The notes beneath the pieces were generated by a model. It was not told where the DNA came from and made no database searches. It was given only the letters and a program-made list of their open reading frames with translations. A DNA stretch of 64,000 bases from Candidatus Multivorans sp. (lineage in GTDB: Bacteria > Acidobacteriota > Thermoanaerobaculia > Multivoradales > Multivoraceae), in the NCBI GenBank assembly GCA_965247095.1, contig OZ251997.1:1952001-2016000 (forward strand), in the 5' to 3' direction. Positions 13,116-41,241 of this stretch are shown piece by piece (positions within the stretch are counted from its first letter, which is position 1; the number at the start of each line of letters is the position of its first letter). The translations under genes and the position numbers were made by a program.

Positions 13116-14645
13116 ATGCCACTAACAAGCCAGGAACTCCAATCCAAGCTGTGGCAGGCCGCGGACATCCTCCGTGGCCAGATCGACGCCGCCGACTACA
13201 AGAACTACATCTTCTCAGTGCTGTTCCTGAAACGGCTCGCAGACCGATTCGACGAGGAGGTGGGGGCCGCCATCTCGGCAGGCGTACCGCACGACGCAGC
13301 GTTGACCGACGCCGACGAGCATGAGTTCTTCGTCCCGGCGTCCGCACGCTGGGCGGCGCTCACCGCGGCCTCGATGAATCTCGGCGAGGCGCTCAACGTC
13401 GCCGGCCAAGAAATTGAGGATGCGAACACACCCAGGCTGGACGGCGTACTGACGAACACGAACTGGAACGACGAGTCCAAACTCGGCAGCCCGGCCAACC
13501 GCGAACGCATCATCCGCAGCCTGTTGAACCACTTCGCTGCTCTCGATCTGCGCGACGCAAACCTGCGAGACCCGGACGGTGGCGTCGACAACGTGCTGGG
13601 CGATGCCTACGAGTACTTGATCAATCAGTTCGCCGACGACGCCGGCAAGAAAGGCGGCGAGTTCTACACGCCGCGCCCGATCGTGCAACTGATCGTCGAA
13701 CTGCTCCAGCCGAAAGAGGGAATGCGGATCTGCGACCCCACGGCGGGTTCGGGCGGCATGCTCATCTTCACCGCGCAGTTCGTGCAGAAGAACGGTGGCG
13801 ACCGGCGGAACCTCGTGCTCCATGGGCAAGAGCGCAACCTGGGAACACTCGCCGCAGGCAAGCTGAACCTCCTGCTCCACGGTCTGTCCGCGGCCAGGCT
13901 GGAGGCCGGCGACGTGATCGCAGAGCCCGGCCTAGTCGACTCCAAGGGCCGCCTGCTCTCGTATGATCGCGTGGTCGCCAATCCTCCCTTCAGCCTCAAG
14001 AACTGGGGTCACGACTTCGCGCCAAACGACCCACACCGCCGCTTCAACCGCTTCAAAGCGATCCCGCCGCGAACGAGGGGTGACCTAGGCTTCCTGCTCC
14101 ACATGCTGGCGGTGACCAATGCGAAGGGCATGGTGGGCGTGGTGATGCCCCACGGCATCCTGTTTCGTGGCGGGGCCGAAGGGAAGATCCGCCAGGGCAT
14201 CGTCGAGGCGGACCTCTTCGAAGCGATCATCGGATTGGCACCCAACCTCTTCTTCGGCGCCTCCATACCCGTGTCCATCTGCGTCCTGAACAAGGCGAAG
14301 CCGCCGGGCCGCCGAGGCAAGGTCTTGTTCGTGGACGCGGCGCAAGAGGGCTGCTTCCGGCAAGGAAAGGGCCAGAACTTCCTGGATCCCGAGCACATCG
14401 ACAAGATCGCCAAGGCGTACCACGCCTTTTCGGACATCGAACGGTTCGCCCATGTCGCCGACTTGGCCGAGATTGAGGCCAACGACTTCAACCTGAACAT
14501 CAGCCGCTACGTCGACACGACGGAAGTGGAGGAAGTGTTGAGTGTCGAGGAAGCGCTCACGCAGTTGCGGCACGCGGAGCAAGAGCGCGAAGAAGCCGTG
14601 GCAACGATGGATGGGCTGCTGAGGGAGCTGGGCTATGACCGATGA
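13116..14645 (+). CDS. hsdM: Type I R-M methyltransferase subunit M (m6A)
   Basis: LWQAADILRG, GEFYTPR, DPTAGSGGML, NPPF, PHGILFRG. Confidence 0.97.
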   Translation: MPLTSQELQSKLWQAADILRGQIDAADYKNYIFSVLFLKRLADRFDEEVGAAISAGVPHDAALTDADEHEFFVPASARWAALTAASMNLGEALNVAGQEIEDANTPRLDGVLTNTNWNDESKLGSPANRERIIRSLLNHFAALDLRDANLRDPDGGVDNVLGDAYEYLINQFADDAGKKGGEFYTPRPIVQLIVELLQPKEGMRICDPTAGSGGMLIFTAQFVQKNGGDRRNLVLHGQERNLGTLAAGKLNLLLHGLSAARLEAGDVIAEPGLVDSKGRLLSYDRVVANPPFSLKNWGHDFAPNDPHRRFNRFKAIPPRTRGDLGFLLHMLAVTNAKGMVGVVMPHGILFRGGAEGKIRQGIVEADLFEAIIGLAPNLFFGASIPVSICVLNKAKPPGRRGKVLFVDAAQEGCFRQGKGQNFLDPEHIDKIAKAYHAFSDIERFAHVADLAEIEANDFNLNISRYVDTTEVEEVLSVEEALTQLRHAEQEREEAVATMDGLLRELGYDR

Positions 14646-14690
14646 AGGGCAGCACCTAGGCGACGATCGGGCGATTCCCGAGGCGCGCGC

Positions 14691-15929
14691 ATGACGGAAC
14701 GAAGACCAGTCCCGGACGGCTGGAACCGGGTGCCGCTCAGTGCCGTTGCGACCGTAGTGATGGGCCAGTCGCCGCCCGGCAACACCGTGTCTGACCTCAG
14801 AGAAGCCACCCCTGAGGATGGTGGGCTGCCCTTCCTTCAAGGCAACGCTGAGTTCGGGCGCAGTTCCCCCGCTCCAACGAAGTGGTGCTACCGACCTGCC
14901 AAGGTGAGCGCCGCTGGGGACCTCCTGATCAGCGTGAGGGCACCTGTCGGCCATACGAATCGGGCTGACCAGCCACTCGCCATCGGCCGTGGCCTCGCCG
15001 CCGTTAGGTTCCTCCATGTGTCCCCGGATTTCGGATGGCATGCCGTGAATCGCGCGAAGAAAGCTCTCCAGCGGCTCGCGCAAGGCAGCACTTTCGGAGC
15101 TATCAACGGGAAAGAACTGCGTCAACTGACCTTTCCCCTCCCTCCCCTCCACGAACAACAAGCCATCGCTACGACGCTCAACGCCATCGATGAAGCGATC
15201 GGGCGAGCCGAGAACATCATCTCCGTCACTGAGAACCTGCTCGATGCCCTCCGCCAGGAACTCCTCACCCGCGGCCTCCCCGGCCGCCACACGGGGTGGC
15301 GAGAAGTACCGAAGCTCGGCACGATCCCCTGTTCTTGGAGAACCGCCAAGGTCGAGGATGTCGCCGAAATCGTGGGCGGAAGCACTCCGGCTAGAAGCAA
15401 GCCAGAGAATTGGGGTGGCGACATCCCATGGCTGACACCTTCGGAGATCTCTGAGAACACTGGAATGTACATTTCCCGTTCCCGCGAGAAACTCACGGCG
15501 GCCGGCCGTAGAACCGCCGGACTCTCACTCCTGCCCAAGGGATCCGTACTCCTCACGAGCCGGGCCACGATCGGGGCCACGGCTGTCGCGACGATGGCAA
15601 CCACAACGAACCAAGGCTTTCAGAACCTCGTACCGCGGGAACGCACAGACCCGCTGTGGCTCTACTACGAGATGACCCACAGCAAGCAGCGTCTGAAGGC
15701 ACTCGCTGCCGGCAGTACGTTTCGGGAAGTCTCCCGCAGAGCCGTCGCCACCCTCGACATTCCGTACCCTCCTTTGCAAGAGCAGAAAGCGATAGCCGGG
15801 GTCCTAAGTCGCGTCGACGGGGCGATCGAGCAGGCCGCGAATCAACTGCAAGCGATGGTCGGGCTGCGAACGGCGATGGCCGATGCACTGCTGACCGGCC
15901 GCCTTCGAGTCGTGAGCGCACGTGGCTAG
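14691..15929 (+). CDS. hsdS: Type I R-M specificity subunit S
   Basis: Two TRD repeats (GQSPP...; GGSTP...) each ending GSTF...PPLxEQxAI; RQELLT conserved region. Confidence 0.95.
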   Translation: MTERRPVPDGWNRVPLSAVATVVMGQSPPGNTVSDLREATPEDGGLPFLQGNAEFGRSSPAPTKWCYRPAKVSAAGDLLISVRAPVGHTNRADQPLAIGRGLAAVRFLHVSPDFGWHAVNRAKKALQRLAQGSTFGAINGKELRQLTFPLPPLHEQQAIATTLNAIDEAIGRAENIISVTENLLDALRQELLTRGLPGRHTGWREVPKLGTIPCSWRTAKVEDVAEIVGGSTPARSKPENWGGDIPWLTPSEISENTGMYISRSREKLTAAGRRTAGLSLLPKGSVLLTSRATIGATAVATMATTTNQGFQNLVPRERTDPLWLYYEMTHSKQRLKALAAGSTFREVSRRAVATLDIPYPPLQEQKAIAGVLSRVDGAIEQAANQLQAMVGLRTAMADALLTGRLRVVSARG

Positions 15930-16905
15930 GCCCACCCGATCCACGTCCATGGCAAAGTGTGCTGAGTCCGCCCTTCTTGCAGCGATCGACGTCTACAACA
16001 AGCCCTTGGCCGAGCACCGGGAGCAGACTCTCGCGTTGCTCCTCATCAACGCCTGGGAGGTCCTGCTCAAGGCCCGCGTACTGCAGCTCAACGACAACAA
16101 GCTGCCTTCAATCTACCAACGCCAGAAGGGGTCGCGTCGCTACCGGCGCACCCGGACGGGTGAACCCTGGACAATCGATATCTGGGATGCGCTCAATAGG
16201 GTCGCCGCGCCCCAGCCGATTCGCTCGAACCTTGACGGCCTGAACCTGGTCCGAAACCAAGCCGCGCACGAAGGCCTTCTAGCGAACCCACTAAAGCGGA
16301 GTGTTCTCGACTACGGGACGGCGGCTGTTCAGAACTTCGCCCACTACGCCGAGTCCTGGTTCGAACTCACTGTGCGAGTCCCCTACCTGCTTCCGATCGG
16401 CTTTCTCGGTGCCGCTGCGGCTGCGGGGCCGCCTCCGAACCAGAGCCAAAGACAGCTACTCAGAAATCTCAAAGAGATCGCATCGGACCATGGGGACCCA
16501 GATTCGCAGTACGCAGTCACCATTAGACTCAGGATCGAGCTGAATCCCGGATTCTCAGGCGGCGGCAGCATCGGCCCAACCACCGACCCCCTTGCCCCCA
16601 AAGTGCGGTTGTCGGACGATCAAGCGCTTGAGATATTCCCCGCCACCTACGGGCAAATCCTTGAGGAGTGCAGGACGCGTTACCCGCAGTTCAAGCAGAA
16701 CAGGCGCTTCAACCACGCGATGAAGGCGGTGAAGGAGGATCCTGAATGCGCCTACAAACGCAAACTTGATCCTCGACAAAAGGGCGGCACCGAACGGACA
16801 TTCTACAATTCATGCACGACCCTGGCGCGCCTCGACCGTGAGTATCGAACACACGCCGCGAAGACGGGACGAGCCGTACAGATGAACAAGGGGACGCCGC
16901 GGTGA
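15922..16905 (+). CDS. DUF3644-like protein with HEPN-type RxxxxH motif (putative RNase effector)
   Basis: ALLAAIDVYNKP...LLINAWEVLLKA N-terminus; RNQAAH motif; lies between hsdS and hsdR. Confidence 0.7.
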   Translation: MARPTRSTSMAKCAESALLAAIDVYNKPLAEHREQTLALLLINAWEVLLKARVLQLNDNKLPSIYQRQKGSRRYRRTRTGEPWTIDIWDALNRVAAPQPIRSNLDGLNLVRNQAAHEGLLANPLKRSVLDYGTAAVQNFAHYAESWFELTVRVPYLLPIGFLGAAAAAGPPPNQSQRQLLRNLKEIASDHGDPDSQYAVTIRLRIELNPGFSGGGSIGPTTDPLAPKVRLSDDQALEIFPATYGQILEECRTRYPQFKQNRRFNHAMKAVKEDPECAYKRKLDPRQKGGTERTFYNSCTTLARLDREYRTHAAKTGRAVQMNKGTPR

Positions 16906-17765
16906 CCACGAAGCGAATAGCCCTCACATTCGAGGGGCCCGACGTCAATGAACGCGGCGTTCCTCTGGACGACCTCCAAAGAGCGCTAGGGCACGTTCAA
17001 CGGGCGCTGGAACTCACCGTGCGGCACCTGGCGGGCCTCCACGAGGCCGATCCGCTGCCGGAGGCCCTCAAGGCCCAGTGCGAGCTCAGGGTGGTGGGCA
17101 TCTACCGAGGTTCTCTGACCGTGGAACTGGAACTGAAGTCGGAGGGGGCTCTGCCACCGGACTCCGACGACCTCGGCGCTCAAGCCCTCAATGCCGTCCT
17201 GAACTGGTGCAGTGGCGGAGCCCAGGGTGGCACGCGCCTGCAACCGGCCGCGGCCGCGGAGCTTGCCGCAGTCCGCGAGGACGTGTCGTCGAACCTGACC
17301 GCCGTGAAACTCGAGGGGATGTCGCTCCCTCCTTCTTCCGGTCCGAAGCGCCCCCTGCCGCCACGGACCGCAGAATCGAGACCGAACGGAGAGAAGCTCA
17401 AGGCACACCTGCATGGAACCCTCTCGGAGGTCGACTGGGGGCGCCGTACTGCCCGGCTTCGCCAACACGGCGGCACGCCCGTGCCACTCAGCTTTGGAGC
17501 GGACCTCGACGAGGACATGCTGCGGCTGGCAACGCAGTACGTTGAGGTAGAGGGCGAGGGTTGTATCGAGGCGGACGACGAACGGTGGACGAGCGTCGAC
17601 GTCAGGAGGATTACGGGGACGCGATCCTGCTTTGAACCCTTCGATCTCGGAGAGCTGGATGGGAGAGCAGGCTTCGTATTCGGGCGTGACGCGAGCGTCA
17701 CGGTGAGCGATCCCTACGACCACGATGAGTTCATGCTCGTCATCCGGGAAGCGCGGGGAGCGTAG
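16902..17765 (+). CDS. Hypothetical protein, putative antitoxin/sensor partner of the downstream PIN toxin
   Basis: 287 aa; OB-fold-like C-terminal region (HGTLSEVD...VEVEGEG) and acidic VapB-like terminal helix (DHDEFMLVIREAR); stop abuts the PIN start. Confidence 0.65.
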   Translation: MTTKRIALTFEGPDVNERGVPLDDLQRALGHVQRALELTVRHLAGLHEADPLPEALKAQCELRVVGIYRGSLTVELELKSEGALPPDSDDLGAQALNAVLNWCSGGAQGGTRLQPAAAAELAAVREDVSSNLTAVKLEGMSLPPSSGPKRPLPPRTAESRPNGEKLKAHLHGTLSEVDWGRRTARLRQHGGTPVPLSFGADLDEDMLRLATQYVEVEGEGCIEADDERWTSVDVRRITGTRSCFEPFDLGELDGRAGFVFGRDASVTVSDPYDHDEFMLVIREARGA

Positions 17766-18175
17766 TGGATGCCAAGGGCCAGACGAACGCCGTGCTCGAC
17801 ACCAGTGTCGTCTCCATACTGTTCGGCGACACCAGCAAATCTCCGCTCTACAGCAAGGAACTTGTTGGCCTTAGAGGGGTCATCTCGTTCCAGACGTTGG
17901 AAGAAGTGTGGTTCGGAGCGTTCTTGGCAGGCTGGGGAACGCGCCGAAGAGCCGAACTGGCGGCACACCTGAACCAGTACCTCGTGATCTGGCCCAATCC
18001 AGCCCTCGTTGATCGATGCGCTCGCCTCCGTACGGCGAGGCGCGCCGCCGGGAAGGAGCTGAGTACTGCTGACGCATGGATCGCCGCCACCGCCATCATG
18101 CTGGGGTGCCCATTGGCGTCGGACGACGGCGACTTCGACCGCATACCAGGGCTTGAAGTGATCCGGATCGAATGA
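17765..18175 (+). CDS. PIN-domain (VapC-like) nuclease
   Basis: VLDTSVVS, QTLEE, ADAWIAATA, LASDDGDF. Confidence 0.9.
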   Translation: MDAKGQTNAVLDTSVVSILFGDTSKSPLYSKELVGLRGVISFQTLEEVWFGAFLAGWGTRRRAELAAHLNQYLVIWPNPALVDRCARLRTARRAAGKELSTADAWIAATAIMLGCPLASDDGDFDRIPGLEVIRIE

Positions 18176-21100
18176 CCCGCATCGACAACTTCAACGAGTT
18201 CACGCAAGCCGAAGACCCTGCCCGCAGGTTGCTTGAGCGGCTCGGTTGGACCTATGTGCCTCCGGATGCGCTGGCTCAGGAGCGCAGCGACTACGGGCAG
18301 GTACTACTGAAAGCGCGACTACAAGCCGCATTGAGGCGGTTGAACGAGTGGATGTCCGAGGATCAGGCGGCCCGCGTCATCTTCGAGCTGGAGCACATCG
18401 ATGCCGTCGGCATGGGGCGCAACCAGAGAGTCCATGAGTACTTGACCTACGGCATGCCGCTCAACGTCGACGGTTCGAGCGGGCAGCGCTCCCGTGTCGT
18501 ACGCTTCTTCGACTTCGACCGACCCGAAGGCGGCTTGAACGACTTCGTCGTCACAACTCAGTTCCGGGCCCACCGCGGCGTCAGACCCGGCGAGGCCGGA
18601 GCGGGGAAGCGGGTCGTCATACCGGATCTGGTGCTGTTCGTGAACGGCATCCCCGTGGTGGTCATGGAGGCGAAGTCACCGACGCTCTTTGGCGAGTGGA
18701 AGGCCAAGGCTGTGGACCAGCTTCGCCGCTACCAGGAGGCCGATCCGGAGTGGCGCGGAACGGGCGCCCCCGCGCTCTTCCACTACAACCTCCTCTGCGT
18801 CGCCCACTGCGGCGCCGCAGCGGCCTACGCGCCCCTCGGCGCACCCGAGAACGCCTACCGCGAATGGAAGTCCGTCCTGCCGTTCACCGAGGACGAGGTT
18901 CGGCATCGTTTCGGCTGCGAACCGTCCGGCCAGGCCCAACTCATCGTCGGGATCCTCAAGCCCGTGACCCTGCTCGACATCCTCCGCGACTACGTCGTCT
19001 ACGAACCGGAGCGCGGCCGGCTGGTCAAGAAACTGCCCCGCTACCAGCAGTTTCGCGCCGTCGGGGCGGCGCTGACGCGCATCGCGGAAGGCCGGCGGCC
19101 CGAACAGCGTGGCGGCGTCGTCTGGCACACACAGGGGTCGGGCAAGTCGCTGACCATGCTCTGGTTGGCGACCAAACTGCGTCGCGACGCGCGTTTGTCC
19201 AACCCGACCATCGCGATCGTGACCGATAGGCGGCAACTCGACCGCCAGATTGCGGGCACGTTCGAACGCTGTGGTTTCCCCGCACCGGAGCGCGCAGTCA
19301 ACACAGCGGACCTGCGCCGGCTGCTCACCGCCGGACCGGGGCGCACCGTGCTGAGCACGATCCAGAAATTCGAGGACGCATTGGAAGCCGCCGAAGGTGA
19401 ACTCGACGCGCTCGACTCGTCCGGGAACGTCATCGTCATGGTGGACGAGGCGCATCGGACCCAGTACGGAATCTTGGGGGCTCGATTGTCGAAGGCTCTT
19501 CCCAATGCGGCACTCATCGGCTTCACGGGCACGCCCATCGACAAGGGGTTCCGGCGCAGCACGATGCGGCGTTTCGGCGCCCTCATCGACTCCTACACGA
19601 TTCCCCAGTCGGTGGCCGACGGCGCCACGGTGCCGATCCTCTACGAGGCGCGGCTACCCGAGTTGGCCGTCGAGGGCGCGGGAACGCTCGACCGCCTCTT
19701 CGACGCCCTGTTCGGCGACGAGACTCAGGAGGCTCAGGTTCGGATACGCAGGCGCTACGCCAACAAGGAAACCGTGGCCACCGCGGATCGACGCATCGAG
19801 ATGGTCGCCCTAGACATCGCAGAACACTTCAAGGACAGAGTGCGGCCGAATGGCTTCAAGGCGCAGGTCGTGGCGCCGAGCCGGGCGGCTGCTCTGCGCT
19901 ACGCAAAGCACCTGAGCGGCTTCGGCGTAAGCGCCTACCCCATCATCACGACCGGACCGAACGACGGAGCCGAATTCCAGGCAGCACGCGAACTCGACCA
20001 GGAACAGATCACGAACGCCTTCGTCGACCCTGAGGGAGAACCGGAGATTCTTGCCGTGGTGGACATGCTCCTGACCGGCTTCGACGCGCCCGTCGAGCAG
20101 GTGCTCTATCTGGACCGCTCACTCCGTGAACACGGCCTGCTGCAGGCCATAGCCCGGGTGAACCGTCGATTCTCGCACGCGAAGAACGGCGTTCCCACCG
20201 AGAAGGAGTACGGCCTGGTCGTGGACTATCACGGCGTGTCGGGAAATCTGGAACAAGTCCTATCGACATTCGACTGGCAGGATGTTCAGCAAGCATTGGA
20301 GCAGATCGAGGACGATCCCGCGCCCTCCATCGACGCAGCCGCCGTCCAGGCTGAATCGCACTTCGAGGGCCGGAGCCTGAGCGACACGTGGGCCTGCGTC
20401 AGCGTGTTCGCGCCCGACGCCGAAACGGAAGGTAACTACAAGGCCGACCTGTTCGAGCGGTTCAACACGGACTACCGCCTGTTCTCACGGCTGATGGACC
20501 GCTTCCTACCTGATCCCCGGGCGCTCGACTACACCGACCGTCTCGCGCGCCTGACAGAGATTCGCGCCTACGTGCGCGCTCAGTTCCTTCGCGAGGATGC
20601 CGACGTGAACTGGACCGACATCGGCGCCAAGGTCAAGAAATTGATCGACGAGCGGATCAGCGCCGAAGTCCGACGGCTGATGAAGCCAGTCTCGATCCTC
20701 GACAGCGACTTTGATGAGAAGGTTGCATCCCTGCCCAACGAGGAAGCGCGCGCATCCTTGATGGAACACGCGATCCGGGCGCAACTGCACGAGCGGCTCC
20801 ACGACAATCCGGCCTACTTCGGGAAGCTCTCGGAGCAACTCGAGCTGATCATCGAAGACCTCCGCAACCGATTGATCGACTCGGCTGAGGCCAGCAAGCG
20901 ATTTGCCGAACTCAGGCAGCAGATTCGGAGCGAAACTGACATAGCAGGACATTACGGGCTCTCCCCCGTCTCCTTTGCCATCTATGAGTTGCTGGACGGC
21001 GACCCGGCGAACAATTCCGGAACAGGACATGGTCAGACCCTCCACGAAGCTCGGAGCGTCGTGCCCGACTGGCTGTCGCGGGACAAGACCAGTCCCCGAC

Positions 21101-21315
21101 TGGACCAGGAGATGAAGAGCGTCGCGTCGCTGCTCGACGCCGTCCTGAAAGCCCACACCACCGTTATCGACTGGCAATCCAACCTCGAAGTCCAGCGCGA
21201 AATGCGGCGAGACATCAAGCGGCAACTGCGGAAGACCGGGGCCCGCCCCGACGACCAACTCGACAAGCTGGCAAACCAGATCGTCGAAGTGGCGAGACGG
21301 CGGTACACGATGTGA
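18172..21315 (+). CDS. hsdR: Type I R-M restriction subunit R
   Basis: PDLVLFVNGIPVVVMEAK nuclease motif, HTQGSGKS, DEAHR, GFTGTP, MLLTGFD, QAIARVNR. Confidence 0.97.
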   Translation: MTRIDNFNEFTQAEDPARRLLERLGWTYVPPDALAQERSDYGQVLLKARLQAALRRLNEWMSEDQAARVIFELEHIDAVGMGRNQRVHEYLTYGMPLNVDGSSGQRSRVVRFFDFDRPEGGLNDFVVTTQFRAHRGVRPGEAGAGKRVVIPDLVLFVNGIPVVVMEAKSPTLFGEWKAKAVDQLRRYQEADPEWRGTGAPALFHYNLLCVAHCGAAAAYAPLGAPENAYREWKSVLPFTEDEVRHRFGCEPSGQAQLIVGILKPVTLLDILRDYVVYEPERGRLVKKLPRYQQFRAVGAALTRIAEGRRPEQRGGVVWHTQGSGKSLTMLWLATKLRRDARLSNPTIAIVTDRRQLDRQIAGTFERCGFPAPERAVNTADLRRLLTAGPGRTVLSTIQKFEDALEAAEGELDALDSSGNVIVMVDEAHRTQYGILGARLSKALPNAALIGFTGTPIDKGFRRSTMRRFGALIDSYTIPQSVADGATVPILYEARLPELAVEGAGTLDRLFDALFGDETQEAQVRIRRRYANKETVATADRRIEMVALDIAEHFKDRVRPNGFKAQVVAPSRAAALRYAKHLSGFGVSAYPIITTGPNDGAEFQAARELDQEQITNAFVDPEGEPEILAVVDMLLTGFDAPVEQVLYLDRSLREHGLLQAIARVNRRFSHAKNGVPTEKEYGLVVDYHGVSGNLEQVLSTFDWQDVQQALEQIEDDPAPSIDAAAVQAESHFEGRSLSDTWACVSVFAPDAETEGNYKADLFERFNTDYRLFSRLMDRFLPDPRALDYTDRLARLTEIRAYVRAQFLREDADVNWTDIGAKVKKLIDERISAEVRRLMKPVSILDSDFDEKVASLPNEEARASLMEHAIRAQLHERLHDNPAYFGKLSEQLELIIEDLRNRLIDSAEASKRFAELRQQIRSETDIAGHYGLSPVSFAIYELLDGDPANNSGTGHGQTLHEARSVVPDWLSRDKTSPRLDQEMKSVASLLDAVLKAHTTVIDWQSNLEVQREMRRDIKRQLRKTGARPDDQLDKLANQIVEVARRRYTM

Positions 21316-22040
21316 CCTCGCGCGACGAAGTCCGCTTCGGCGAGACCACGATCGAGTACCAGGTGCGGCGGAGCCAGCGCCGTCGGAAGACGGTCCAGAT
21401 CACAGTCGACGGCAACGGCGTGCATGTCACCGCCCCCGCAACTACGCCGGACCGCGAACTGCGCTCCATTGTCCGTAAACGAGCTGCCTGGATAGTCCGG
21501 CATGCTCACGGCGCACCCCTCTCCGTCCCCCAGAAGCGCTTCGTCAGCGGCGAGACGCTCCCCTACCTGGGCCGCAACGTCCGCATGGTCTTTGAGTCAG
21601 CGAAGACTCGGCGCGCCCTGCTCCGGTTCGACCACTGGCGCTTCCGCATCACAGTACCGGAAGGCCTATCCGACCAACAGCGCTATCAGCGAATCCGCCA
21701 CGTCGTCATCGATTGGTACCGCAACCGGGCTGCACAGCGCCTACCCGAAACCGTCGACCGCTGGTGGCCACAACTCGGACGCGGCGACCGCCCGCAGATA
21801 CTGATCCGGGACCAGCGCCGCCGCTGGGGAAGCTGCGCCGCCGACGGCACCCTGCGCTTCAACTGGCGGGCCATGATGCTGGAGCCTTCGCTCATCGACT
21901 ACATCGTGGTCCATGAGTTGGCCCACCTGACGATCAGGAATCACTCGGAGGCGTTCTGGGCATTGGTGTACGACGCGATGCCGGACTCACAGGTCCGGCG
22001 CCGGCGGCTTCGAGAGGCAGGGTGCTCGCTGCCCCTCTAG
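21312..22040 (+). CDS. YgjP/SprT-like (DUF45) zinc metallopeptidase-fold protein
   Basis: QRRRWGSC, LRFNW, YIVVHELAHL...NHS; usual position after hsdR. Confidence 0.9.
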   Translation: MTSRDEVRFGETTIEYQVRRSQRRRKTVQITVDGNGVHVTAPATTPDRELRSIVRKRAAWIVRHAHGAPLSVPQKRFVSGETLPYLGRNVRMVFESAKTRRALLRFDHWRFRITVPEGLSDQQRYQRIRHVVIDWYRNRAAQRLPETVDRWWPQLGRGDRPQILIRDQRRRWGSCAADGTLRFNWRAMMLEPSLIDYIVVHELAHLTIRNHSEAFWALVYDAMPDSQVRRRRLREAGCSLPL

Positions 22041-31330: not shown

Positions 31331-32839
31331 TCAGTCTCCGCCTCCAGCGACCGGGGCGCCCAGACCGCCATAGACGCCCCCACCCAACGCCAGGATCAGA
31401 TCCGTCCGCGATTCGAGTTGCTGCCGACGGGCGGCAAGCAATTGGCGCTCCGATTCGAACGACGTGCGCTGACTGTCGAGCACCTGCAGGTAGCCCACCA
31501 GTCCCTGCCGGTACCGGCCCTCGGCCAGGCGTTCCGCCTCCCGGCTCTCGGTAGCCGCCCGCTCCAGCGCCCCTGTCCGCTCCGCCAGCATCCGTTCCGC
31601 CACGAGACCCGACTCGACTTCCGCGAAGGCCGCGAGAGCCGTCTGCAACCAGTTCGCCTCCGCCGCGTCCAGGCCCGCCAGCACCAGATCCCGCCCGGCG
31701 CGGAGCCGGCCACCCGAAAGCAGGGGCTGCAGCAGGCCGGCGGCCACACTCCAGACCGAGAAGTCTCCGTCCAGCAGGTCGCTGAGCTCTCCGCTCGACG
31801 TGCCCGACGAGCCGTTGAGCCTGAAGGTCGGGTACAGAGCCCGGCGGGCGGCGCGGAGCCGTTCGGACGAGGCGACCGCGCGGTACTCTGCCGCCCGCAG
31901 GTCCGGCCGGCGCGCGAGCAGATCCGCCGGCACGCCGGTCGCGGGCAGCGGCGGCAATTCGGGCAGGCCCTCGGCCGCCTCGATCTCGCCCGCCGGATAG
32001 CGCCCCAGCAGGACCTCCATCTGGCGGCGCAGCCCGTCGAGCGCCTGCCTCTGCGCCGCCAGCGAGGCCTCGACCGTCGCAATCTGGGCGCGCGCCTGCC
32101 GCACCTCGAGCGCGGTCGCCACACCCCGCCGGTAGCGGGCCCCGATCCGGTCGCGTGTCCGCTCGCGGCTCGCCAGAGTGCGTCGGAGGAGTTCCTCCTG
32201 CTGCACCGCCTCGACGACCCCGAAGTACACCTTCGCGAGCTGGCCGGCGATCGAGAGGCGCGCCCCGTCGAAGTCGGCCTCGCCCGCCGCCGCCTCGGTC
32301 AGGGAGGCCGCCGTCACGGCGCGGAGCCGGCCCCACAGGTCGACCTCCCAGCGGACGTTCAGCGCCAGACCGTAGCTGGTGAAGGCGAAGCTGCGCACGC
32401 CACCCGGCTCGAAGCCCGGAATCGGGATCGGAATCGCCTTGGTCAGGCCGCTCTGGGCGGTGTTCTGCTTGCGCCGGCCGGGGTCGAGCGCCGCCTCCAA
32501 CTCCGGATTCCCCGCCGCCCCGTCGATCCGGGCCTGGGCAAAGGCCGTCTCGACATTCGCGGCCGCGGCGCGCAGGCTCGCGTTGTGCTCCAAACCCTCG
32601 ACGATCAACTGCGACAGCAGCGGATCGCCGAAATCGCTCCACCAGTCCGACGCGACCTGCGAGGAGCCGGCCGACGCCTCCGCCGAGGCCGCCGCATCGC
32701 CGAACTCGGCCGCCACAGGCGCTTCCAGAGCCGGCGGACCAGGGCCCACAGCACTGCAACCGAGCCAGAGGATCGGAGCGGCGACTAGCGACCAGCGCAG
32801 CCGGCCCAGGACGCCACCATGAAGGTGAACCATCATCAT
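31331..32839 (-). CDS. TolC/NodT-family outer-membrane efflux lipoprotein
   Basis: Lipobox LWLGC, WWSDFGDP, WEVDLWG, LLARRPDL, LALGGG. Confidence 0.92.
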   Translation of the reverse strand: MMMVHLHGGVLGRLRWSLVAAPILWLGCSAVGPGPPALEAPVAAEFGDAAASAEASAGSSQVASDWWSDFGDPLLSQLIVEGLEHNASLRAAAANVETAFAQARIDGAAGNPELEAALDPGRRKQNTAQSGLTKAIPIPIPGFEPGGVRSFAFTSYGLALNVRWEVDLWGRLRAVTAASLTEAAAGEADFDGARLSIAGQLAKVYFGVVEAVQQEELLRRTLASRERTRDRIGARYRRGVATALEVRQARAQIATVEASLAAQRQALDGLRRQMEVLLGRYPAGEIEAAEGLPELPPLPATGVPADLLARRPDLRAAEYRAVASSERLRAARRALYPTFRLNGSSGTSSGELSDLLDGDFSVWSVAAGLLQPLLSGGRLRAGRDLVLAGLDAAEANWLQTALAAFAEVESGLVAERMLAERTGALERAATESREAERLAEGRYRQGLVGYLQVLDSQRTSFESERQLLAARRQQLESRTDLILALGGGVYGGLGAPVAGGGD

Positions 32840-32846
32840 GAAGGGG

Positions 32847-32864
32847 AACCAACGTAGGTTGGTT
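32847..32864. promoter_or_regulatory. Palindromic operator-like site between the divergent RND and amidase operons
   Basis: AACCAAC-gtag-GTTGGTT perfect 7-bp inverted repeat just upstream of the tolC-like start. Confidence 0.4.
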
Positions 32865-32977
32865 GTCGGGTACGGACGATCGACTCGAGAGTTCGACGCC
32901 GAGCCGAGACTACTAGCCGCCGAGGGCCGGGAATCAGTTAGCGTCATCCCGATGGCACCCGACCCGGAGCAGGTTCC

Positions 32978-34066
32978 GTGACCCCGGAGGATCGCGGCGC
33001 CAACCCGCCTTCCGGACACCGCCGCGTCGACCGGCAGCTCAAGCTCGACCTGATCGAGGCCGCCGTGCGCGAGAACGAGGCCGAGCTTGGCCGGCAAGGT
33101 TCCGACCCCGCCGGGAGCGACGGTCCGAAACGCCGACGGCGACGCCGTTTCTCACCCTGGAGCCTGCTCCTGCTGGCGCCGATCGCCGCCGCCGCCGGAC
33201 TCGGCTACCTGGAGCTGAAGCGCCCGGGAGCGGAGATCCAACCCGACCCGCCCGTCGAGGCGGCGCCGCCGGCGCCCGAAGTCCGTTTCACCGAGCCGCC
33301 GGAATCCCTCAACCTCAGCGTCTTCCCGCTGCCCATCAAGAGAATCGTGCTCGATCCGGGTCACGGTGGCGCCGCCTCCGGTACGGTGGCCGGAGGACTG
33401 GCCGAAAAGGACCTCGCGCTCGACATCGCCCGTCGGGTACGCGAGTTGCTGTCCGACCGGTACCGGGTCGCAATGACCCGCGAGGCGGACTTCGAAGTCG
33501 AACTCGATCGTCGTTCCGGCATCGCCAACCGGGCCGGGGCCGATCTGTTCGTCTCGATTCACGTGAACTGGTTGACGCGGAACCAGGCCTGCGGCGTCGA
33601 GACCTACTACCTCGGCCCCACCGACGACCCCGAGCTGACCGCACTCGCCGAACGGGAGAATGCCGAGGCGCACAGCTACTCCCTGGCCGATCTGCGCCGC
33701 CTCCTCGACGGCGTCTACGCACAGGCCATGCAGGACGAAAGCCGCACTCTCGCCAACGCGGTTCAGGACGCCCTGTTCGCACAACTGCAGACATCGAATC
33801 CGGAGCTACGGAATCGCGGCGTGAAGACGGCGCCCTTCGTGGTCCTGATCGACGCCGAGATGCCGGCCATCCTGGCCGAGGTGTCCTGCCTTTCGGACGC
33901 CGAGGAGATCGACCGGCTGCGCGAGGCCGACTACCTCCAGTCGATTGCCGAAGCCCTCGATGCGGGCATCCGGAGCTACGCCGACTCGCTTCTCTTGTCG
34001 GCCGAGCCGCCGGCAGCAGATCCGGCGCTAAGCTCCGCGACTTTGGAGATCAAGGAAGAGCAGTGA
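32978..34066 (+). CDS. N-acetylmuramoyl-L-alanine amidase (Amidase_3) with N-terminal membrane anchor
   Basis: Zn and catalytic residues in LDPGHGG, EKDLAL, FVSIHVN, AILAEV; poly-Arg followed by a TM helix at aa ~51-80. Confidence 0.93.
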   Translation: MTPEDRGANPPSGHRRVDRQLKLDLIEAAVRENEAELGRQGSDPAGSDGPKRRRRRRFSPWSLLLLAPIAAAAGLGYLELKRPGAEIQPDPPVEAAPPAPEVRFTEPPESLNLSVFPLPIKRIVLDPGHGGAASGTVAGGLAEKDLALDIARRVRELLSDRYRVAMTREADFEVELDRRSGIANRAGADLFVSIHVNWLTRNQACGVETYYLGPTDDPELTALAERENAEAHSYSLADLRRLLDGVYAQAMQDESRTLANAVQDALFAQLQTSNPELRNRGVKTAPFVVLIDAEMPAILAEVSCLSDAEEIDRLREADYLQSIAEALDAGIRSYADSLLLSAEPPAADPALSSATLEIKEEQ

Positions 34067-35097
34067 GCAACACCACATCCAACGGGGAAGTCCTCAAGGT
34101 CGGCATCGACCTGGGGACCTCGCGGAGTTCGATCTCGGCCGCGAACGGCCAGCGCCACATGGTGCAGAGCTACGTCGGCTGGCCCCGGGACATGGTGGCG
34201 AGGAAGGTGCTCGGGCGCGACGTGCTGATCGGCGCCGAAGCACTGGAGCACCGCCCCATGCTCAACCTGCGCCGGCCGCTGGAGCGGGGTCTGATCAAGG
34301 AGGGATCGGTCCAGGACGAGAAGGCCGTCCGCGAACTGGTTCGCCGGCTGCTGGAACTGGCGGCGCCGCCAGGACCCGGGCCGGCGCCCGCGATCCACGC
34401 CGTCGTCGGCGTTCCCGCCGAAACGCTCAGGGTCAACCGCCAGAACCTGCGGCGCATCCTGACCGGCCTGGTCGCGAACACGATCATCGTCTCCGAACCG
34501 TTCGCCGTTGCCTACGGACTGGATGCCCTGCTTCACACGATGGTCATCGACGTCGGCGCCGGCACGACCGACTTCTGCGTCCTGATGGGCCGCTTCCCGA
34601 CAGAGGACGATCAGCGCACCCTGAGCGCCGCCGGCGACGCCGTGGACCGTCACCTGTACGGCCTGATCGAAGAGCGCTACCCCGACGCCTCGGTGTCCAT
34701 CCACATGGTGCGGGCCTGGAAGGAACGTCACTCCTTCGTCGGCGAGAGCGACCCGGTCGTGGTCGACGTGCCGGTGCGCGGCAAGCCGACCCGGATCGAC
34801 ATCACCGAGCCCATGCGGCGCGCCTGCGAGAGCCTGCTGGAGCCCCTGCGCGAGACGATGCTGGACCTGATCGCGAAGGTCGAACCCGAGTACCAGAGCC
34901 GGATCCGCAGCAACCTGATCCTCACGGGCGGCTCCGGCCTGATCCGGGGCCTCGGCGCCGAGCTGCAGCAGGCCCTCGGCGAACTCGGCGGCGGCCACGT
35001 GCGCGTGGTCAAGGACCCTGTCTTCGTCGGCTCCGACGGCGGCCTGAGCCTGGCCAGGGACGCCAACGACGAGTACTGGAAGCGCCTCGCCGGCTAG
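34063..35097 (+). CDS. Actin-like ATPase of the MamK type
   Basis: GIDLGTS, YVGWPRD, AVVGVPA, VSEPFAVAYGL, IDVGAGTTD, EPEYQ, GGSGLIRGL, VKDPVF, EYWKRL; follows MamK rather than MreB motifs; GTGA overlap with amidase. Confidence 0.88.
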   Translation: MSNTTSNGEVLKVGIDLGTSRSSISAANGQRHMVQSYVGWPRDMVARKVLGRDVLIGAEALEHRPMLNLRRPLERGLIKEGSVQDEKAVRELVRRLLELAAPPGPGPAPAIHAVVGVPAETLRVNRQNLRRILTGLVANTIIVSEPFAVAYGLDALLHTMVIDVGAGTTDFCVLMGRFPTEDDQRTLSAAGDAVDRHLYGLIEERYPDASVSIHMVRAWKERHSFVGESDPVVVDVPVRGKPTRIDITEPMRRACESLLEPLRETMLDLIAKVEPEYQSRIRSNLILTGGSGLIRGLGAELQQALGELGGGHVRVVKDPVFVGSDGGLSLARDANDEYWKRLAG

Positions 35098-35119
35098 CAG
35101 CGCAGGTGGGTTGATGCTC

Positions 35120-35944
35120 CTACCGCCGGGCAACCAGATAGACGACCCAACTGCCGTCGTTGGCGAGCCTGGTGCGGTGCCGGAAGACGCCGTTGGGCTC
35201 GTCGGTGTCGGTGTCCCATCCCTCGCCGTAGACCTCGACTTTGCCGAAGCCGGCCTCGGCCAGGAGTTCGCGGATCTCGGGCAGGGTCCACATCCGCCAC
35301 GCGTAGCGGAACAGGTTGCGGACACGCTCGCTGCCCTCCGGCGTGAAGTGCATCGCGCACTTCATCCAGTGATCGACAGCGTTGAAGGACGCCTGGTCCC
35401 AGGTGTAGGTGAACGCCGGCAACGCCACGCCGTCGACGCCGACGGAGGCCTCGACCGCGGTGTCCTCCGTCGCGGTCTGGAACGAGTCCGTGCCGCCGAA
35501 GGCATCGAGTACGAACAGGCCGTCGACCGCGAGGGAGCTTCGGGCGGCGCCGAAGTACTCCAGCATGTCGGCCCGCTTCGGGAACAGGAAGTACGAGAAG
35601 TTGAACGCGACCTGCAGATCGACCGGCGGGCCGCCAACCGACCGCACGTCTCTGCATTCGAGTTCGACCCGGTCTTCGACGAAGTTCGCCTCCACCCTGT
35701 TGCGCCAACCCCAGTCCAGGGTCGGCCGGTCGAGATCGACGCCCCACGCGCGGTTCACGGACCGTCGCGATGCGAACGCGCTCGCGAGCGAGGCCGTGCC
35801 GCAGAAGTCCTCCCGCAGGGTCACCGGTCGCCGGCCGTTCAGCCGGCGGTAGACCCGGTCGAGGAAGTCGAGGTCCACCTCCACGTTCTGGACCGCCGCC
35901 TCGTAGAACCGATGGCGGTGGCGGCGAACTTCGGACGGCTTCAC
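35120..35944 (-). CDS. Class I SAM-dependent methyltransferase
   Basis: FYEAAVQ, LREDFCGTA, GVDLD, AFNFSY, GLFVLD. Confidence 0.85.
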   Translation of the reverse strand: MKPSEVRRHRHRFYEAAVQNVEVDLDFLDRVYRRLNGRRPVTLREDFCGTASLASAFASRRSVNRAWGVDLDRPTLDWGWRNRVEANFVEDRVELECRDVRSVGGPPVDLQVAFNFSYFLFPKRADMLEYFGAARSSLAVDGLFVLDAFGGTDSFQTATEDTAVEASVGVDGVALPAFTYTWDQASFNAVDHWMKCAMHFTPEGSERVRNLFRYAWRMWTLPEIRELLAEAGFGKVEVYGEGWDTDTDEPNGVFRHRTRLANDGSWVVYLVARR

Positions 35945-38629: not shown

Positions 38630-40018
38630 CGGATTTCGGACAGCCGGCGCTCGGCGCCGGATGCGGCGCGTTACGTTTGTCGCTGCACGCGCCGCCGGCG
38701 GCGCGCCAACCATCAGCCCTCGTCCGCGGGGCGACGGTGGATGAGCTGTCCCCTGCGCTGGTCCACGCTTCTCCTCGTGGCGTAGAAGGTCCAGGCTACC
38801 GGCCCAGTTCGGGCGCGCTTCGACGACAACGAGGCTGTTCCTCTCGTCGGCGAAGGAACCTGGCTTCACGCAAGCGGCGCTTCCCACTATCGCCTAAGCT
38901 CACCGCTGCAGAGGACCCACGACCGCCGATGACAACGACGACCGCGAAACTGGCCACAGCGGCGGAGGCCTTTGCCTGAGCGAGCTTGCCGATCAGGGCG
39001 CGGGCCACCCCGACACCATGAAGCTATCCCGGCTCTCTGCACACCATTACAGGAGTGTGAGAGAGGACACGATCGACCTGGGCCCCTGAATCTCCTCATC
39101 GGCGCCAACGCCGCAGGAAAGAGCACCGTGCTTGATGCGCTGCGCTTTCTTCACGAAGGAGCTGTGGCCCGCGATTTCCGCACCCCTGTGTTCACCAGGG
39201 GCGGAATCATCCATCTGGCCTGGAAGGGTGACGAAGCAAAGCGCGCCGAGTTGACCGCCAGCGTTGTCGACGGTGACACGACCTACGAGTGGTTTGTCGG
39301 GCTGGTCCGGGACGGATACGACTTCCGTGTCGAAGAGCACGTCGACATGGTGCGCTCCCAGGCTCCGCCAACCAGAGTCCTTGAAGCCAGCGCCGGCAGC
39401 GGCTGGTGGTGGTCGGGCGACGAGCGCAAGAAGGTGCCGCTCCGCCAGGAACCTACCGCATGTGCGCTGGCCTTGGCTGCGGCTGATGCCTCATTTCCAG
39501 CTCGGGCTGTCGCCGAGTTTGTCCGGCTTGGGGTTTCTTCGACCCGCACCCCTTTCTTCTCCGCCGAGACTGGTCCGGGCTTGACGCCGGCAGGTTCGAC
39601 CCCTACGGCAGGAATTTGGCCGAGACGCTCTATACCCTCCACCGCTCCTCGCCCGACATCTTCGACGCCGTCGTGGAAGCGACACAGTCCGTTCTCGGCC
39701 TCCCTTCCAGCATTCAACCACGGGAGTCAGACGACCGGTTTTACTTCGTCCAGAACGAGCCGGGGCTGAGGTTCCCCGTGCATCAGATGGGCGTCTCCAG
39801 CGGCACGTTGCGCATGCTCGCCCTCATGACCGCGCTCCTGGCGGAGCCGGAAACCAACCTCGTCGGGACCGAAGAACCGGAGAACTACCTCGGGCGGTCT
39901 CCAGGCAACGTGGATACGTCCAAGCCCGACGCGATACACAATCCGAAGTTGCACCTGAAACACCTACTCGGAAAGCGGGTCTACACCGCGCGGCTTTCGG
40001 AGGAGATCGCGCAGAGGC

Positions 40019-41241
40019 TAGTGCCGTGTCACTCGTCAAAAGTCGGATAGAGGCGCTTGAGTTTGACGCGAGCGTCGTCGGTGGTGAAGTGCCAGTTGAC
40101 CTTGGCTTGGATCCGGTCTCTGGCGGCCTGCCAGGCGCCGACTTCGGCGCGTAGGGTGTCGATGGAGTCGATGCGGCGGTTGAGGCACTGGCGGATCATC
40201 ACGCTGAGTTCGACCTCGGCGACGTTCAGCCAACTGCCGTGCTTGGGGGTATAGACGAACTCGAAGCGGTCCCACAGCGCCTTGGCCCGGGCCGGGTCGA
40301 AGGTCTCGTAAAGCGCGCCGGGGCGGTGCGTGTTGAGGTTGTCCATCACCAGCGTGATTCGGGTGGCGTCGGGATACTGCCCGGCGATGTCTTCCAGGAA
40401 ACGCGCCCAGTCGGTCTTGGTCCTGCGCTCGGTGACCTTGGTCAGACGCCGCCCGGCCAGCGGTTCGGTCGCCATGAACACGTTGCAGGCGCCGCAGCGT
40501 CGGTACTCGTAGTCTTCGCGGACCTCCCGTCCAGGGGCCGGCGGGATGGGCGCCCGTGTCTCGGCGATCAACTGCCGCGGCGTCTCGTCCATGCACACCA
40601 CCGGGAAGCTCGCGTCGTGCGGACGCCGATAGACGTCGAGCACCCGCTCCATGTTCGCCGCGAAGTCGGCGTTGCATTGCGGCGGAATCACCCAGCCGAC
40701 GCGGCGCCACGGTTTGAGAGCGTTTTTTTTAGCACCCGCCGCACCGTCTCGTGCGAGACGCTGTCGATATAGCCGAGCTCCACCGCACGGTCCGCCAACA
40801 GACGCAGAGACCACTGCGAATGCCCTTCGGGCGGCTCTCCGCAACTGAGCGCGATCAGCCGCGCCTCGAACTCGCCATCCGCCTTGCGCAGGTACTTGGG
40901 ACGACGCCCCTGCCGACTCCCGAGCGCCGCCTCCAGACCGTCCTCCACAAACCGCCTCTTCACACGATCCACCTTGCGCGCACTGATCCGCAAGACCCCG
41001 GCGATCGTCTCGCCGGTCGTCCGACGCCCGTTGAACTCGCCCTCGTCGCAGTTGAGCAGAATCAAGGCGTTGATCACCTTCTGCGACCGATGCGAACCCT
41101 TGCGCGTAGTCGTCGCCAACGCCTCGCGCTCCTGCTCCTCCAACTCCACCACATACCGCTTCATGCCAGACTCCTTGCCGTCGTCGAACGGCAAGGAACC
41201 TACTACGATTCATGCGACATAGGACGTGTGACATGACACTA
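40019..41241 (-). mobile_element. IS630-family insertion sequence
   Basis: CTAG at both ends (40018-40021, 41239-41242) with TA duplication; imperfect IR CTAGTGCCGTGTCAC / GTGACATGACACTAG; empty site restores the host reading frame. Confidence 0.93.
40029..41164 (-). CDS. IS630 transposase (orfA/orfB joined by frameshift at an A8 run, 40723-40730)
   Basis: orfA HTH (WSLRLLAD...SHETVRRVLKK); orfB DDE motifs CMDE, MDNLNTH, SWLNVAE. Confidence 0.92.

Follow-up and report, generated by a model that had tools for sequence, protein, structure and literature searches.

Bacteria must cut their cell wall at the right place without lysing, and the known solutions include MreB-guided synthesis, amidases targeted by FtsEX-EnvC or through AMIN domains, and the bactofilin-LmdC pair. 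In the divisome of Escherichia coli, FtsA, a protein of the actin fold, binds the short basic N-terminal tail of FtsN, a bitopic periplasmic cell-wall protein. Here, we analyze a 64,000-nucleotide stretch of the genome of Candidatus Multivorans sp., a member of the Acidobacteriota (GenBank assembly GCA_965247095.1, contig OZ251997.1, positions 1,952,001 to 2,016,000 of the forward strand; hereafter, the window, with positions counted from its first nucleotide), in which the gene of a predicted membrane-anchored peptidoglycan amidase overlaps the gene of an actin-like protein related to the magnetosome actin MamK. The initial annotation of this DNA proposed that a filament of the actin positions the amidase through the amidase's cytoplasmic tail.

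The available part of a report on the bactofilin BacA of Hyphomonas neptunium and Rhodospirillum rubrum describes how the polymer recruits the bitopic M23 endopeptidase LmdC, encoded by an adjacent gene, by binding its N-terminal tail in the cytoplasm (PMC10945521). Among the actins, the three-stranded tubular BeeR of Verrucomicrobiota is, according to the accessible part of its description, a protein of unknown function that is related to MamK and found in bacteria that are not magnetotactic, and the hallmark of its family is a disordered N-terminal extension of 30-50 amino acids (PMC11929497). In Thiomargarita, a gene homologous to mamK is located next to one for a flotillin, as the available portion of a preprint mentions. 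With BeeR and the Thiomargarita homologue, these sources already put relatives of MamK on record outside the magnetotactic bacteria. Our literature search, which left subscription journals and supplements outside its scope, turned up no paper on the pairing of such an actin with an amidase, or on the amidase tail motif described below.

A conserved amidase-actin gene pair

The amidase gene (32978..34066, plus strand) is an open reading frame (ORF) of 362 amino acids (aa) with a GTG start, encoding a predicted bitopic N-acetylmuramoyl-L-alanine amidase of the Amidase_3 family. The actin gene (34063..35097, plus strand), also with a GTG start, encodes a 344-aa actin-like ATPase of the MamK superfamily that belongs to the amidase-linked clade delineated below. 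The two genes share the four bases GTGA (34063..34066, plus strand), in which the TGA stop of the amidase overlaps the GTG start of the actin (34063-34065), exactly as the initial annotation had read from the DNA, and this 4-base overlap recurs at 10 other loci of the genus. Within the window, the pair is a free-standing two-gene unit because it is flanked upstream by an RND efflux operon on the opposite strand (OEP, HlyD-type and AcrB-type genes) and downstream by convergent genes, namely, a weak methyltransferase-like ORF and a HAD hydrolase.

The actin is present in all 41 genomes sampled from the same order (the genome under study included) and in 24 of the 301 genomes sampled across the phylum (E up to 1e-30). 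The actin gene is immediately preceded by the amidase gene, in the same orientation, in 49 of 49 loci of relatives (gap between -14 and +194 nt) and in 78 of the 80 loci from named species genomes, all of them metagenome-assembled genomes (MAGs); in the two loci without an upstream amidase, the actin gene is located at the very end of a contig. Overall, the pair was found at 127 other loci with at least seven phylum-level labels, Acidobacteriota, Nitrospirota and Desulfobacterota among them, and every actin of the amidase-linked clade with readable upstream DNA has the amidase directly upstream. Those labelled Candidatus Multivorans sp. and Thermoanaerobaculia, with 94% and 92% identity, respectively, are the nearest of the named loci; the labels of loci further away are Holophagae, Aminicenantes, Rokubacteria, Schekmanbacteria, Rhodothermales, Nitrospiraceae, Ca. 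Sulfobium, Thermodesulfovibrio, Desulfobulbaceae, Syntrophobacteraceae, Gammaproteobacteria and Chromatiales. The conservation of the adjacency across taxa, which had been named as a check on the original proposal, is therefore borne out.

The two genes are also absent together. All five genomes of the same class that lack the actin also lack this type of amidase (four of four if G063, an unpublished genome, is left aside), and the best amidase in these actin-less genomes is 37-42% identical in the catalytic domain only, with a long periplasmic N-terminus and no tail motif. Collectively, these data support the amidase and the actin as a strongly conserved two-gene unit. In a few loci, the actin gene itself is disrupted, by an in-frame TAA (L051, genome G255), by a frame change near residue 309 (L026, genome G014) or by a split across contigs C51 and C54 in genome G008, which might reflect gene decay or assembly breaks.

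Family and phylogenetic position of the actin

Profile, sequence and fold comparisons agree that MamK is the best-matching family of the actin, and not MreB, FtsA or ParM, as the initial annotation had concluded. In a search that listed 13 NCBIfam families, with no ParM model among them, MamK ranked first (NF040964, 360.5 bits, cut-off 400), followed by BeeR (NF053558, 212.9 bits, cut-off 530), MreB (47.4 bits, vs a cut-off of 293 for PRK13927) and FtsA (15.9 bits); in the genome-wide search, the MamK model gave 360.8 bits. Among solved structures, phmmer matched the protein to MamK 5jyg over aa 11-342 with an E-value of 1.5e-79, compared with 2.3e-43 for BeeR and 1.9e-10 for MreB. All eight motifs that had been named in the translation are indeed present there and are collinear with those of 5jyg, which read GIDLGTS, VGYPKD, AVIGVPA, VSEPFMVGYGL, DIGAGTTD, PEYQ, VKDPTF and YW. 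The AlphaFold2 (AF2) model of the actin (predicted local distance difference test score, pLDDT, 83.3) found its best Foldseek match in the MamK filament subunit 5ljv_A (E 9.3e-36, TM 0.83/0.88, 39% identity), with BeeR second and MreB no higher than rank 23. Pfam assigns MreB_Mbl with 56 bits and Actin with 40.9 bits, scores that exceed the respective cut-offs. Residues D16, G18, D163 and G165 are invariant, and E145, which aligns with MamK residue 143 and which we take to be the catalytic residue, is nearly invariant.

We constructed phylogenetic trees from representatives of the family at 50% identity (960 hits, E up to 0.001), locus-derived actins of known genomic context, and the organism's own MreB as the outgroup. 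From the tree with 32 labelled rows, 21 representatives were left out for speed or because of long branches; the actins of loci L102, L105 and L115 were kept out of the trees because of in-frame stops in the extracted sequences, and a more careful tree was thinned further, to 56 rows. The amidase-linked actins formed one clade with an SH-aLRT support of 97 (32 labelled rows) and, in the 56-row tree, with ultrafast bootstrap (UFBoot) and SH-aLRT supports of 98 and 92, respectively; the clade was recovered in 98% of 200 bootstrap trees. Four rows labelled as magnetotactic, two of which (P0195 and P0189) bear names that point to a magnetotactic source, fall outside this clade, in another one: P0195, a MamK-like protein of Paramagnetospirillum magneticum; P0189, a 'Magnetosome protein MamK' from an uncultured bacterium; P0155, named simply 'MamK family actin-like protein', from a Deltaproteobacteria bacterium; and P0150, which has no name and was picked for its top score with the MamK model. 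BeeR-like proteins make up a third, separate clade (support 99-100).

The NCBIfam MamK scores are continuous across these clades, from about 170 to 508 bits, so the MamK cut-off is no clean separator between them; some amidase-linked relatives pass it, for example, P0122 (425 bits, 'MamK family', from a Nitrospira MAG), whereas the window protein does not. We therefore retain one part of the original identification and drop the other. The combined evidence supports the reading of the protein as a relative of MamK, and not of MreB, FtsA or ParM, whereas strict membership in the MamK family fails, given the score below the cut-off, the different clade and the different gene context. The named database entries for amidase-linked actins are mostly 'rod shape-determining protein MreB', and these labels on a MamK-like clade are a systematic mis-annotation.

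The root shifted between trees: in the first, the MamKs labelled from magnetotactic bacteria were placed next to the MreB root, and in the second and third, BeeR took that position. With such an unstable root and an MreB branch of great length (3.6-5.2 changes per column), the trees allow no claim on the direction of descent between the clades. The suggestion that this locus offers a clue to the origin of MamK is accordingly not upheld as it stands, the amidase-linked actins and the MamKs labelled from magnetotactic bacteria being separate clades with a root that moves from tree to tree.

Two peculiarities of domain architecture were encountered among the relatives. P0189 (768 aa) consists of a complete FtsZ (Tubulin and FtsZ_C domains; TIGR00065, 351 bits) fused to a MamK domain (446 bits), so that a tubulin-like and an actin-like polymer protein are joined within one chain. 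In a tight MamK-family clade (P0132, P0134, P0136-P0141, P0143-P0145, P0151, P0153 and P0154), the actins carry N-terminal extensions of about 190-900 aa, with no Pfam domain, a coiled-coil or low-complexity look, and no tail motif.

With regard to gene context, no mam-like or mreCD-like domains were detected by Pfam in 41 ORFs of the window, a scan that left out some small ORFs, in agreement with the earlier observation that the window lacks mamABEIMQ and mreCD. The complete genome, a single 4.6-Mb contig (98.96% complete), was searched by family for MamI, MamP and MamQ, a set that did not extend to MamA, B, E, M and O. MamI gave 0 matches, as it also did in 14 control genomes, none of them magnetotactic, so that this null result comes without a positive control; the best match for MamP reached 32 bits (cut-off 300), and that for MamQ, a distant LemA-like gene, 74 bits (cut-off 250). 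For the three families searched, the non-magnetosome context that had been assumed for the pair is thus supported.

Membrane topology and catalytic domain of the amidase

Pfam recognizes Amidase_3 (PF01520) at aa 123-332 of the amidase (E 1.9e-44; 152.2 bits vs a cut-off of 27). The AF2 model, built with 25 aligned orthologues (mean pLDDT 78.8), has two helices, at residues 19-36 and 61-80, with a disordered, basic segment between them; a linker, likewise disordered, leads from the second helix to a confidently modelled catalytic domain at 121-341. The DNA encodes a K-R-R-R-R-R-R run (aa 51-57; 33128..33148, plus strand) just ahead of the single hydrophobic, predicted transmembrane helix (aa 61-80; 33158..33217, plus strand), which appears as a helix in the AF2 model and as an uncharged run in the homologues. 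Across 117 homologous N-termini, the eight residues that precede the hydrophobic run carry a net charge of +3.8, compared with -0.4 behind the run, an asymmetry that is consistent with the N-in topology; the uncharged run has a median length of 21 aa and spans at least 20 aa in 97 of the 117 homologues. The data fit a protein with an N-in membrane anchor and a putatively periplasmic enzyme domain, and the N-terminal segment, basic run, single helix and orientation described in the initial annotation are all recovered. No match to the AMIN or TAT_signal domains was obtained for the amidase in Pfam or NCBIfam (for TAT_signal, at E up to 0.01).

The predicted periplasmic catalytic domain (aa 121-341; 33338..34000, plus strand), delimited by the AF2 model, invariant residues and Foldseek, is the best conserved part of the protein. 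Residues H129, E143, H195 and E301, presumably the Zn ligands and the catalytic Glu, are invariant in all 25 orthologues and, given this invariance together with the conservation of the entire domain, the enzymatic activity appears to be under selection. Among solved structures, Foldseek places AmiA (8c2o) and AmiC (4bin) of E. coli closest in fold, with E-values of about 4e-18, and the more distant fold matches include the endolysins CD27L and PlyPSA. An insertion of approximately 44 aa (aa 213-256; 33614..33745, plus strand) maps by alignment to the site of the regulatory segment of AmiA/B/C because AmiC, AmiA and AmiB align through it as one stretch (122-338), whereas short amidases (5emi, the catalytic domain of Nostoc AmiC2, and CwlV) skip it. 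The insertion is well conserved, with a top-residue frequency of 0.70.

A conserved motif in the amidase tail

Alignment, a regular expression and the AF2 model jointly delineate a conserved motif in the predicted cytoplasmic tail of the amidase (aa 17-39, with a predicted helix at 19-36; 33026..33094, plus strand). Residues 17-39 follow the pattern [RK]-x-[KR]-R-x-[LV]-[LI]-x-x-A-V-x-E-N-[LV]-x-x-[IL]-x-G. In the amidase alignment, K22, L25, I26, A29 and V30 are invariant by residue class and N33 is present in 24 of the 25 rows; class conservation is 0.68 in the motif, vs 0.22 in aa 1-16 and 0.45 in aa 40-60. In other phyla, the motif takes the form K-x-x-I-L-[RK]-G-V-Y-E-[ED]-N-L. A first hidden Markov model (HMM) of the tail, derived from Acidobacteriota only, recovered 95 of the 117 tails at E up to 0.01, missing most of the variants from other phyla, and was replaced by a regular expression and a second HMM. 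The regular expression, for a nine-residue core, matched 110 of the 117 tails; of the seven that escaped it, six look by eye like near variants, and the other stems from a mis-set sequence window.

In the genome under study, the motif HMM matched the amidase alone among 15,270 ORFs (E 1.2e-5; next best, 0.54), that is, no other motif-bearing client was found in this set. A Rosetta-stone comparison, in which the tail motif was sought as a fusion to the actin, gave no significant match in 150 actin representatives, those with long extensions included (best E 0.77).

The portability of the motif was assessed with a metagenome scan seeded with a sister clade of actins (the P0127 group), which yielded 80 loci. 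The 12 loci with an upstream amidase all have an actin of the amidase-linked clade. At 27 of the 58 non-amidase sister-clade loci, the core h-h-x-x-h-[FYVILH]-x-x-N occurs within the last 45 residues of the upstream frame, compared with a background of 31 among 23,030 frames of the genome under study and 0 of 10 amidase C-termini; among the 31 sister-clade loci without the core, some have a near variant of it or an upstream frame that was wrongly chosen in GC-rich DNA. The 27 motif-positive upstream proteins fall into 8 groups without BLAST similarity outside the motif region, the largest with 18 members. Of the upstream sister-clade proteins that were scanned for domains, 5 of 18 contain GGDEF domains and the others have no Pfam match. 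The GGDEF partners, together with a PilZ neighbor in locus L097, hint at a link between this actin family and cyclic di-GMP signaling. At loci L144-L177 and others, the upstream proteins end in ...I-Y-R-x-V-Q-G-L... followed by the core motif of the amidase tail. As far as sequence comparison goes, the motif accompanies the actin gene whatever the partner, at the predicted cytoplasmic end of that partner. This portability is the strongest comparative argument for a candidate actin-docking peptide, with the proviso that it is an argument from a short, degenerate pattern.

A putative cytoskeleton-guided cell-wall hydrolase

Starting from the observed gene order, families, folds, conservation, clade structure and motif distribution, we propose, with a probability of roughly 0.55, that the actin filament docks the tail of the amidase and places or switches the enzyme. 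Under this reading, the two genes would constitute one operon for a cytoskeleton-guided cell-wall hydrolase. The amidase would be anchored in the inner membrane, its zinc amidase domain facing the periplasm and about 58 residues extending into the cytoplasm, where a conserved amphipathic helix would be followed by a basic stretch. The MamK-like actin would polymerize with ATP beneath the membrane, the filament would bind the tail helix, and this contact would set the position, clustering or activity of the amidase and hence affect peptidoglycan cleavage; the enzyme, in addition, seems to bear an insertion of the kind that keeps AmiA/B/C-type enzymes off. We favor docking because of the conservation of the motif, the co-absence of the amidase type and the actin, and the presence of the same motif on the partners of the sister actins; the near-absolute linkage (49 of 49 and 78 of 80 loci) counts in its favor as well. 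So do the single clade of the amidase-linked actins, the preserved ATPase motifs of an actin whose model best matches the MamK filament subunit, the precedent of BacA and LmdC, and the SPOR-domain proteins among the ORFs downstream of the actin (7 of 41 scanned). Thus, of the original proposal that a filament positions the amidase via its tail, the two-gene unit and the N-in tail, which proves to contain a conserved motif, hold, and the putative binding and positioning have the support of sequence comparison.

Several points weigh against docking. Polymerization of the actin is assumed from family membership, and its AF2 model is poor at residues 37-70. The genome also encodes a true MreB (C1:3309162-3310112, 479.6 bits), 1.3 Mb away, and two Amidase_3 paralogues of greater length (592 and 597 aa), both with long periplasmic N-terminal regions and one also with LysM. 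No third gene is universally conserved beside the pair. The core motif shared with the sister clade is a short, degenerate pattern, and a single protein family accounts for 18 of the 27 sister-clade cases. Rather than the actin, the membrane or a chaperone could be the binding partner of an amphipathic helix next to a basic stretch. Finally, a twin-arginine is found no more than four residues from the hydrophobic run in 55 of the 117 tails, and part of the amidase family may carry a Tat-type (twin-arginine translocation) export signal.

In an alternative that we consider unlikely, the polarity of the system would be reversed, with the amidase serving mainly as a membrane or wall anchor for a filament that organizes other cargo, cell polarity or the chromosome. 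Such an arrangement would be in line with the report, in the part accessible to us, that MamK filaments need adaptors to reach their cargo (PMC10653835), and with the pairing of sister-clade actins with varied motif-bearing partners, GGDEF-type and others, where the actin is constant and the partner variable. An enzyme that serves as an anchor would not, however, be expected to keep its catalytic residues invariant in 25 of 25 orthologues within its best conserved domain, and neither another ORF with the motif in this genome nor another conserved cargo gene nearby was detected.

Rather improbable, in our assessment, is a role of the tail in export control. E. coli AmiA and AmiC are Tat substrates, and the N-terminal part of the amidase could be a Tat-type signal peptide with a long n-region. 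The actin, or else a chaperone, would then hold the conserved helix only until export, after which the mature amidase would be free in the periplasm, like AmiA and AmiC of E. coli. The twin-arginines close to the hydrophobic run, where the window amidase reads R-R-R-F-S-P, are compatible with such a signal, but they are absent in 62 of the 117 tails, and a run of at least 20 aa in 97 of them (median 21) fits a membrane anchor better than the h-region of a signal peptide; the lack of a TAT_signal match at E up to 0.01 in Pfam and NCBIfam points in the same direction.

We likewise give little weight to co-expression without physical contact, whereby the two proteins would simply take part in the same process, such as division or elongation. 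Adjacency by itself is no proof of contact, but co-expression alone leaves without explanation the conservation of the tail motif across phyla, the joint loss of motif and actin, and the core motif at the ends of the proteins encoded upstream of the sister actins.

A function in mobile elements, namely, ParM-like DNA segregation, phage lysis or an anti-phage defense pair, appears highly improbable. Actin-like ATPases segregate plasmids, Amidase_3 enzymes include endolysins (among them, the distant fold matches CD27L and PlyPSA), and the window contains transposases and a restriction system; however, the pair is located on the chromosome and occurs throughout the order, its tree follows the lineage labels, the flanking genes vary between lineages, PADLOC returned a generic 20-bit match for the actin only and none for the amidase, and no ParM model was among the 13 NCBIfam families listed. 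That the protein is a true magnetosome MamK in a magnetotactic organism, as its top-scoring family and fold might suggest, can be dismissed as next to impossible given the mam gene searches in the complete genome (MamI, without a positive control, MamP and MamQ), the score below the cut-off, the place in a clade apart from the MamKs that are named from magnetotactic bacteria and the presence of the gene in 41 of 41 genomes of the order.

Returning to filament docking of the amidase, a broader version can be formulated, which we regard as tentative, with the odds somewhat against it: one portable docking peptide (core h-h-x-x-h-aromatic/aliphatic-x-x-N-L) may load varied clients onto the actin filament in a branch of the MamK superfamily that spans at least seven phyla, and the amidase clade may be an ancient system for steering peptidoglycan cleavage. 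Amidases would carry the peptide at their N-terminus, and GGDEF-type proteins and other partners would carry it at their C-terminus. If so, the same peptide code might explain the choice of adaptors by MamK-type filaments.

If docking is real, an actin filament hard-wired to an amidase via a docking peptide would be a further, widespread solution to the problem of wall cleavage and would provide the first function for a large uncharacterized branch of the MamK/BeeR actin superfamily. The carriers are mostly uncultured Acidobacteriota, Nitrospirota, Desulfobacterota, Rokubacteria, Gammaproteobacteria and Rhodothermales. Given that the motif is portable, a direct test of the idea could be made with a peptide and a single purified protein.

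Expression signals and neighboring genes

A Shine-Dalgarno-like AAGGAAG, putatively functional, lies 5' of the actin start (34052..34058, plus strand). The promoter is presumed, from the gene layout, to lie between the divergent OEP gene and the amidase start (32840..32977, no strand assigned). Within 32600-35400, a promoter scan found no sigma-70-like sites, and a terminator scan gave a single terminator-like match on the minus strand, which is at chance level. A search for sequencing runs listed 20 entries from 9 studies, none of them RNA. The OEP ORF (31331-33097, minus strand) reaches 120 nt into the amidase gene; because this ORF was called from the first possible start, the exact extent of the divergent intergenic region is uncertain, and the true start of the OEP gene is probably further downstream than called.

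A same-strand ORF follows the actin in 41 of 78 loci, in families that differ from locus to locus; there is no such gene in the window itself. Among these 41 ORFs, seven encode SPOR-domain proteins (L067, L085, L088, L112, L116, L117 and L118), three of which have a response-regulator receiver domain at the N-terminus, one encodes a PilZ protein (L097), five encode dihydrofolate reductase (DHFR), and the rest are unrelated or unassigned. SPOR domains read the denuded glycan made by amidases. In Rhodothermales-type loci (L130, L131, L135, L136 and L113), the end of the actin gene adjoins or overlaps the DHFR gene.

Elsewhere in the window, two overlapping ORFs in different frames (38972-40050) match the N- and C-terminal parts of AAA_21 (AbiEii-like ATPase) and look like a single gene that a frameshift has interrupted. 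A type I restriction-modification block occupies positions 13116-22040 and encompasses HsdM, DUF3644, an unassigned ORF, a PIN-domain protein, HsdR and a YgjP-like metallopeptidase. Transposase-like genes are located at 40691-41194 and 53509-54723.

Comparison with known systems

With MamK of Magnetospirillum (5ljv, 5ljw, 5jyg), the window actin shares the best profile, sequence and fold matches, as well as the ATPase motifs and the C-terminal YW, but it scores below the family cut-off, belongs to a separate clade and has an amidase as its constant neighbor instead of mam genes. BeeR (8r2n) is second both as a family and as a fold; compared with the BeeR family as characterized in the accessible part of its description, the window actin has no N-terminal extension, its core starting at residue 11, scores 212.9 bits vs 530, and falls into a separate clade.

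Other parallels concern the partner of the actin. FtsA and FtsN resemble the pair in that an actin-fold protein meets the tail of a bitopic partner, a contact that we infer here, and SPOR proteins are encoded downstream of the actin in 7 of the 41 loci with a same-strand ORF; however, the FtsA model yields only 15.9 bits with the window protein, FtsN is not an enzyme, and the genes are no obligate pair. The amidase has the catalytic fold of AmiA, AmiB and AmiC (8c2o, 4bin and 8c0j; with LytM activators), with an alignment that runs as a single stretch through the 213-256 insertion, but it lacks an AMIN domain, possesses a predicted N-terminal membrane helix and cytoplasmic motif, and is always paired with an actin gene.

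The BacA-LmdC pair differs, according to the available part of its description, in that the polymer is a nucleotide-independent bactofilin, the enzyme belongs to M23 and not to Amidase_3, and the tail forms a beta-hairpin, in contrast to an actin and a predicted helix in the pair described here. The two arrangements are not homologous, and yet, with a polymer gene adjoining that of a bitopic hydrolase with a cytoplasmic tail, BacA-LmdC, as far as it is described there, represents the closest known way of working.

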